NCBI GenBank assembly: GCA_044892525.1
Contig: CM097887.1
Span: forward strand, 110,586,397 to 110,650,396
Source of the DNA: Schmidtea polychroa
Taxonomy: Eukaryota
Direction: 5' to 3'
DNA: 64,000 nucleotides
This document shows positions 26,312-26,674 of this stretch, in pieces; within the stretch, counting starts at the first letter, position 1, and each line of letters starts with the position of its first letter. Under the pieces are notes generated by a model. The model was not told the origin of the DNA, ran no database searches, and worked only from the letters and a program-made list of their open reading frames with translations. A program made the position numbers and the translations under genes.

Positions 26312-26674
26312 TTAGGCCGGGTTCTTGCGGGGCCTCCCCCGTTTTCGTGGAGGGGCATCGGTCTCCTCCAGCTCTTCAAGAGCTATCCCCAACGTTTCGG
26401 CCTTGAGTTGGAGCTCGAGTCTCCTCAGCCGCTTTTGGGCCTCTACTACCTCATCGGCCGCTCGATCGCGGGCTTCCCGGAGCACGTTGTTAGTGGGCTC
26501 TACTTTCACCCACGCCGGGGCATCGGGCTCTGGGCCACTCCGAATGACCGGACCATAATTATCTAGGTCCAACCCCCGATTCCAATCGTGGATCCGGTAC
26601 CAGATGTACCGGGTCCGGAGCCGCGTTATCATTTGCCTATATTCCGCTTCGTCGGGACCACTTGCTTGCGACAT
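26312..26674 (-). CDS. ORF-A: 120-aa protein with a short coiled coil and a C-terminal AT-hook (RKRGRPRK)
   Basis: Intact ATG-to-stop ORF; homolog at 12065-12374. Confidence 0.72.
   Translation of the reverse strand: MSQASGPDEAEYRQMITRLRTRYIWYRIHDWNRGLDLDNYGPVIRSGPEPDAPAWVKVEPTNNVLREARDRAADEVVEAQKRLRRLELQLKAETLGIALEELEETDAPPRKRGRPRKNPA

Follow-up and report, generated by a model that had tools for sequence, protein, structure and literature searches.

Accessory genes known to overlap an LTR include nef, MMTV sag, and foamy bel. All of these overlap U3 and lie upstream of the start site, which puts them out of reach of the main promoter in a solo LTR.

Tat and Rev are accessory genes of complex retroviruses (PMC7264820), and additional ORFs also occur in plant Ty3/Gypsy elements, where one has been shown to be nuclear and a role as regulators of retrotransposition has been proposed (PMC7264820, PMC11963269). 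In planarians, Burro/GYPSM1 are described as giant Gypsy-like LTR elements, with a SUMO-like domain reported in Burro by HHpred (PMC6431247). Burro is abundant and is de-repressed on loss of the planarian nuclear PIWI SMEDWI-2 (PMC8532177). The literature searched, which includes neither Grohme 2018 (supplements included) nor the Repbase entry (either of which may draw ORF-A), contains no paper on an ORF or gene inside a Burro LTR, and the portions covered of PMC11410931, PMC8797187, and PMC13238120 add nothing on a Burro LTR gene. Here, we describe ORF-A, an accessory gene under selection that lies within the LTR of a giant Gypsy retrotransposon of the Burro type, as it appears in a 64,000-nucleotide stretch of Schmidtea polychroa DNA (referred to as the window) and across the genome of the species.

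Solo LTRs of a Burro-type Gypsy element

The window contains two minus-strand copies that have TG...CA ends and 4-bp target duplications, which identifies both as solo LTRs. Copy 2 (25201..30753; 5,553 bp; duplication CAAC) interrupts the pol gene of another, unrelated Gypsy element; its identity to each LTR of a 36.7-kb element at G000:C4:57475307-57512016 is 97.5-97.7%. Copy 1 (10937..15884; 4,948 bp; duplication ATAG) belongs to a second LTR type and comprises, likewise on the minus strand, a frameshifted ORF-A with its ATG at 12374, an open ORF-B frame at 11757..11236, a TATA box at 15273-15266, and a donor A|GTAAG at 15187/15186. Elsewhere, LTR pairs in direct orientation surround gag-pol; the two pairs that were compared locus by locus are 99.5% and 99.8% identical, indicating recent insertions. 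By hand count, the best 150 of 2785 candidates include at least nine same-strand ORF-A pairs with a spacing of 30.0-31.1 kb. A reading as a DNA transposon (Ginger-like) was dropped on account of the LTR pairs.

Between the LTRs, Pfam scans of two adjoining loci, each scanned apart, recover zf-CCHC, MATH, a Monjiviricetes-type fusion protein, protease, RT, RNase H, integrase, and ankyrin, followed in the same element by TRAF-like, BIR-RING, and unnamed ORFs. By this architecture, as compared with the published description, the ORF-A-bearing element is a Burro-type Gypsy element. It shares with Burro/GYPSM1 a length above 30 kb (36.7 kb here), a polyprotein with CCHC knuckles, MATH, and a fusion-glycoprotein region before PR-RT-RH-IN, as well as ankyrin, and a BIR in an accessory ORF (PMC6431247). 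It differs in its LTR: the text describing Burro/GYPSM1, figures aside, names no LTR-internal ORF, AT-hook, or leader/acceptor system (PMC6431247, in part). BCL2-like and SUMO-like domains gave no Pfam match at E 0.01 other than a weak OTU1_UBXL, the Burro paper having used HHpred. A RING-finger ORF with its own TAG|ATG is found between the primer-binding region and gag (L036:8936-9415).

At the DNA level, the two window LTRs align only at U3, at a block near 1.1-1.3 kb, and at the 3' end. The 3' end (25201..25450, minus strand) carries predicted hairpins and is the best-conserved block across families; two-sided changes occur in 6 of 51 predicted pairs, nearly all of them reflecting a single family split. 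Rfam gave no match to the LTR 3' end, with one chance-level hit in the search, and a hammerhead-like reading was dropped, the motif being missing in copy 1. The second conserved noncoding block, some 1.1-1.3 kb into the LTR and within the predicted intron (window 29471-29665 and 14567-14769), may correspond to the R/U5 border or to some RNA element. In U3, a GAAnnTTCnnGAA array is conserved at window ~30250-30480 (minus strand) and at all LTR 5' ends compared. The array resembles a heat-shock element, and its presence suggests that transcription may be stress inducible. The minisatellites of the two window LTRs consist of different units that do not align; the one in copy 2, with an AT-rich unit of 119 bp, lies in the predicted intron (28367..28604, no strand) and is absent from copy 1.

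On the plus strand, window 34090-36100 has the start of a third Burro-like LTR, which is more diverged, with a U3 at 68% to copy 2. Its TATA box is interrupted by a ~1.14-kb TG...CA element (~34788-35926), past which the leader resumes and ends again in A|GT; no ORF-A was found downstream of it within the window. An inverted fragment of the LTR 3' block (window 15980-16052) adjoins copy 1. At three loci (L096, L097, and L120), a Burro LTR sits within another Burro LTR or in tandem with one, which suggests insertion into, or recombination among, LTRs. The window also contains an intact histone H4 gene (17776-18096, minus strand) and an H4-like fragment (8369-8485).

ORF-A is conserved by purifying selection

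The first-pass annotation had described an intact 120-aa ORF with a W-rich N terminus, a heptad-like segment, and a C-terminal RKRGRPRK. We recover this frame on the minus strand at 26312..26674 (120 aa plus stop, with the ATG end at 26674), sense to gag-pol and ~4.1-4.4 kb into the LTR; the plus strand of the same interval has an internal stop. The protein reads RYIWYRIHDWNRGLDLD, followed by a helical segment and RKRGRPRK, and the frame has 60% GC, compared with 19-43% in noncoding parts of the LTR. A diverged homolog had also been noted in copy 1, and its motifs are indeed kept, but not VIRAGPE and KKRGRPRKK in one intact frame. There, RHIWHHIHRWSQGRDLD and VIRAGPE are in frame from the ATG at 12374, the frame stops after 67 codons, KKRGRPRKK lies in a different frame, and an HMM recovers ORF-A as three pieces in three frames, so that copy 1 is a broken copy. 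In both window copies, the ATG stands directly after TAG-A. The first-pass annotation had given neither the strand nor the defect of copy 1, and it had noted neither that the element is the LTR of a giant Gypsy retrotransposon nor its promoter, splice donor, and SUMO-consensus motif described below.

Within the species' own genome (781 Mb), 151 ORF-A matches were obtained from the best 150 of 2785 candidates scored; 137 of these 150 rows are free of stops, a share biased to intact copies because the rows are the best scoring. An ORF was called at 80 loci; the frame was full length at 60 of them, and 50 of these frames were unique in DNA. The 20 loci left out were truncated, frameshifted, or otherwise started, and one was a miscalled ORF-B.

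Pairs of non-independent copies, at loci chosen by ORF-A similarity, show a dN/dS (Nei-Gojobori) of 0.43 for dS <0.05 (123 pairs), of 0.21 (14 pairs), 0.20 (268 pairs), and 0.19 (102 pairs) in successive bins of rising dS, and of 0.16 for dS >1 (218 pairs), with 500 further pairs saturated. ORF-A is under purifying selection, with dN/dS 0.16-0.21 between lineages (dS >0.05), and its frame is the only one open in all 18 lineage representatives. The proposal that it is a real gene is thus borne out, dN/dS being ~0.2 and not near 1. For ORF-B, the second gene of the LTR, dN/dS lies at 0.12-0.15 when lineages are compared and at 0.7 among near-identical copies.

A family-specific protein on exchangeable LTR cassettes

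ORF-A matched 0 of 5158 candidates among protein clusters and none of 1.84 billion representatives, and a comparison with 7992 longer candidate proteins gave a single low-complexity match at 18% coverage. PDB sequences, the ESM Atlas, and Foldseek (viral, PDB) returned nothing usable, and no ORF-A-like stretch was seen in the internal element regions examined. A fragment of a known gag or host gene, an origin that the first-pass annotation had left as an alternative, found no such match in the protein and PDB sequence searches. Judged by sequence comparison, ORF-A is a new protein family.

Copy-1-type ORF-A has 45-51% protein identity to copy-2 ORF-A, while the internal regions of elements of the two types share 94-99% identity. 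In physically linked pairs, dS is 0.005-0.19 for the last internal ORF and from 0.14 to saturation for ORF-A (L001 standing in for the protein-identical L002). Since the backbones are near-identical while ORF-A has diverged, the cassette is far older than its carriers and is exchanged among them. Some ORF-A copies (L085, L087) look mosaic.

Predicted anatomy of the ORF-A protein

Four segments can be delineated, all encoded on the minus strand: a W/H/R-rich N-terminal helix (residues 17-38; 26561..26626), a WVKxE/DP motif that forms a proline-flanked SUMO-acceptor consensus with predicted acceptor K57 (26495..26512), a long helix with a heptad pattern and predicted coiled coil (residues 63-95; 26390..26488), and a single AT-hook-type motif or nuclear localization signal, RKRGRPRK (residues 110-117; 26324..26347). 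By segment, pN/pS is 0.18 for residues 52-63 around the WVKxE/DP motif, 0.20 for the hook, 0.26 for the W-rich helix, and 0.39-0.51 for the remainder, which makes the WVKxEP region and the hook the two most constrained parts of the protein.

The structure model is of low confidence (pLDDT 66, pTM 0.32) and places helices at residues 7-32 and 63-95, the latter at pLDDT ~75-85. In a register picked by eye, the a/d positions of helix 63-95 are 82% hydrophobic, compared with 37% elsewhere. A homodimer prediction scored 0.23 and 0.19, below the mark, and counts neither way.

W-V-K-x-E/D-P occupies residues 55-60 in all 50 unique copies; x is filled by six different residues, the lysine is written with either of its codons, and invariant W55, N62, and N63 flank the SUMO-type motif. 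The proline-flanked SUMO form fits 48 of the 50 copies and arises in 0.55% of protein shuffles; the plain psi-K-x-E arises by chance in 9% of ORF-A shuffles and is present in six of eight other ORFs. By pattern, WVKxE/DP is predicted to be a SUMO acceptor of the synergy-control type. With its invariant W and N-N, it could also be a structural motif. Synergy-control motifs are SUMO motifs with proline flanks that limit transcriptional synergy (PMC3554661). A proline-flanked SUMO-type motif, P-I-K-Q-E-P, was observed as well in a 269-aa accessory ORF (L039:1489-2295).

AT-hooks consist of a GRP core between basic residues and prolines, and they also bind RNA (PMC11354804). PPRKRGRPRK agrees with this definition in its GRP core, K/R flanks, and proximal P, and the AT-hook-type motif of the first-pass annotation stands up to comparison across copies: RGRP is kept in 47 and GRP in 49 of 50 unique copies, [KR]GRP[KR] arises in 0.2% of 20,000 ORF-A shuffles, G113 uses all four codons, and R114 uses two codon families. 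The Pfam model AT_hook (PF02178) scores ORF-A below threshold, at 12.3 bits against a gathering score of 17.4 (E 0.17); across 20 members, the best E is 0.023, and 11 of 20 match at E up to 1. RKRGRPRK may also be read as a classical nuclear localization signal.

Predicted expression from the LTR promoter

The TATA box of the LTR promoter lies ~650 nt from the LTR 5' end (30099..30106), and the short noncoding leader exon that follows is predicted to end at 30019 with the donor A|GTAAGT (30013..30019). A predicted 3' splice acceptor TAG is located 1 nt upstream of the ORF-A ATG (26676..26678), and two AATAAA after the stop are candidate poly(A) signals (26285-26290 and 26184-26189). Farther downstream, ORF-B (25536..26022) encodes a coiled-coil protein with PKRKRLGR and has no initial ATG; it opens at an acceptor AG (26022-26021), then TG TAC. 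All of these features are on the minus strand.

A conserved acceptor at the ATG had been suspected from the two window copies, and the wider set agrees: YAG stands 1-2 nt upstream in all 50 unique intact copies (1 nt in 43, 2 nt in 7; 12 upstream lineages), against a background of 25 in 510 other ATGs (4.9%). Because the spacing varies between 1 and 2 nt, no upstream coding phase is kept, and the ATG is likely the true start. Of 20 upstream regions, 10 have a promoter match, 8 have no match, and 2 have off-target matches only; in one of these 2, a promoter was found with a looser pattern, giving 11 promoters. In each of the first 10 promoters, A|GT(A/G)AG lies 76-94 nt past the TATA match; the motif is also present in both window copies, and in all 11 recognizable promoters the first GT(A/G)AG within ~95 nt of TATA has A at -1. 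For background, A precedes 8 of 20 GT(A/G)AG motifs, and A|GTRAG is found in 7 of 880 30-nt windows. The leader itself varies in length and sequence among promoters with the donor A constant, and most leaders contain a short upstream ATG in poor context, the frame of which is not conserved.

At the opening of ORF-B, AG is present in 23 of 26 unique copies, and in 38 of 39 copies the first in-frame Met is that of codon 35 or 45. Joined at the AG|TG opening, a leader whose last base is A would supply ORF-B with an ATG start codon; two diverged ORF-B copies have AA instead of AG and hence an ATG at exactly that place. An AG also stands 0-3 nt ahead of the start in seven further accessory ORFs of this element, and A(A/T)TAAA follows most of them. 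AATAAA occurs <=200 nt past the ORF-A stop in 46 of 50 copies, which are not independent, compared with 94 of 200 upstream control windows. ORF-A is likely expressed by splicing of the LTR-promoter leader onto the acceptor before its ATG. Given the conserved donor and acceptor and the donor A that would complete the ORF-B ATG, a solo LTR is likely a self-contained two-gene unit that has its own promoter and leader, ORF-A and ORF-B, and poly(A) signals.

Contigs on 25150-27900 derive from three runs that are only presumed to be RNA and from a fourth run without a label, with pieces covering ORF-A in X1. Three of these contigs (X1 records 5 and 6, X6 record 23) cross the place of the acceptor unspliced, where DNA and unspliced RNA are indistinguishable. 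None of the 12 joints listed on 25150-27900 is of the GT-AG type, and this stretch does not include the leader, so that a leader-ORF-A junction could not appear there. Two internal deletions considered as spliced genomic retrocopies proved to be short-homology jumps and not splices. The spliced-junction pattern has 21 matches in the genome, compared with 20 in the control; among 12 match loci checked, 2 are ORF-B copies with the intron still present.

Proposed role of ORF-A and alternative readings

We tentatively propose, at a likelihood somewhat short of even, that ORF-A encodes a small protein that acts in the nucleus to regulate LTR transcription or chromatin, in which the hook would give a non-specific grip, the helices would engage partners, and SUMO would serve as a switch. 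The predicted path leads from the TATA box through a leader of ~60-70 nt and the A|GT donor to the ORF-A acceptor and on to its own AATAAA, which would place ORF-A among the first products of the promoter. Full-length elements and solo LTRs alike would make the protein, which could act in trans. Its long helix would mediate oligomerization or partner binding, and the AT-hook would hold AT-rich DNA by its minor groove in a non-specific manner. The earlier idea that ORF-A binds the AT tracts of its own element is weak on specificity: host DNA is AT rich (most 1-kb bins of the window have 24-40% GC) and the minisatellites differ between LTR types, so that the hook alone could not single out the element; moreover, the protein has a single hook, which scores below the Pfam threshold. 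Specificity would have to be supplied by the W-rich helix or by a host partner. Unmodified ORF-A would bring about activation or anti-silencing, and SUMOylated ORF-A would be damped, a role modeled on the early regulators of complex retroviruses.

A broader reading, which we hold to be speculative and on the whole improbable, is that the Burro LTR is an autonomous, splice-programmed two-gene unit. Hundreds of solo LTRs would then supply, in trans, a SUMO-switched AT-hook factor of a new kind that lifts or tunes (piRNA-guided) host silencing. Deeply diverged cassettes would be retained as interchangeable alleles, traded among near-identical backbones as element and host engage in an arms race.

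Several other readings of the same features deserve weighing. ORF-A might act on RNA as a Rev/Rex-like regulator, the hook binding structured element RNA (e.g., the LTR 3' hairpins) such that unspliced genomic RNA escapes acceptors and poly(A) signals. A genomic RNA with ~nine acceptors, and with A(A/T)TAAA after most ORFs, would need such a switch, hairpins are conserved at the LTR end, and AT-hooks can bind RNA (PMC11354804); however, the invariant G and P suit a hook better than an arginine-rich motif, the hairpin covariation amounts to one family split, and ORF-B with its PKRKRLGR is an equally good candidate, so we consider this role rather unlikely. Somewhat less likely still is that the basic tail serves as a nuclear localization signal only and that ORF-A, without binding nucleic acid, works in the nucleus as an adaptor or as a decoy for proteins of the host, e.g., those of the SUMO pathway. 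That the strongest constraint falls on WVKxEP speaks for such an adaptor, as do the TRAF-like, BIR-RING, and RING proteins encoded by the element, the SUMO-like domain reported in Burro (PMC6431247), and the net charge of ORF-A, which is about zero (22 K/R, 21 D/E). A localization signal has no need of G-R-P, but 49 of 50 copies retain GRP.

A packaged ORF-A that tethers the integration complex to AT-rich chromatin seems highly improbable: hook and helix would make a plausible tether, and LEDGF/p75 is counted among AT-hook-like proteins (PMC11354804), but ORF-A types that differ at half of their residues on near-identical backbones are hard to reconcile with a tight integrase partner. The expression path, as opposed to the function, might instead be operon-like, with cassettes resolved by spliced-leader trans-splicing and not by cis-splicing from the LTR leader. 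The layout of stop, AATAAA, short gap, AG, and ATG would fit, and SL trans-splicing occurs in S. mediterranea, the flatworm SL ending in AUG (PMC12582326). Against this stand the conserved cis donor and the reading frame of ORF-B, with which the SL-terminal AUG is out of frame and A|TG in frame; we find trans-splicing distinctly improbable. Lastly, a chance or decaying frame would account for the 20 of 80 called loci that are not full length (one of them the miscalled ORF-B), but with dN/dS at ~0.2 up to saturated dS and no other frame open across all 18 lineage representatives, such an origin is next to impossible.

Comparison with known accessory genes

HMGA-type AT-hook proteins share with ORF-A the RGRP core and the basic and proline flanks; they have three hooks, whereas ORF-A has one, on an unrelated helical body with a SUMO-consensus motif (PMC11354804). 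The extra ORFs of plant Ty3/Gypsy elements, such as Grande gene23 and those of Retand and RIRE2, are, like ORF-A, conserved and without database relatives. They are situated between pol and the 3' LTR, mostly in antisense and with their own promoter, whereas ORF-A is sense and inside the LTR (PMC7264820, PMC11963269).

ORF-A is conserved, family specific, and likely nuclear, and its two point-mutable motifs (K57 and RGRP), together with the predicted junction, make self-regulation of Burro testable. If solo LTRs express ORF-A, supposed dead remnants would be active genes.

Like the accessory genes of complex retroviruses, ORF-A is small, likely nuclear, and likely spliced from a common 5' leader, and, as in nef, sag, and bel, its coding sequence lies within an LTR. 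In sequence and Foldseek searches, it has no sequence or fold similarity to the accessory proteins of complex retroviruses. Unlike the U3-encoded nef and sag, it lies ~3.4 kb downstream of the TATA box, the start site itself being a predicted one. The arrangement predicted here would also extend the plan of complex retroviruses, with a common leader and small regulators, to a Gypsy element in which the regulators are placed downstream of the promoter within the LTR.
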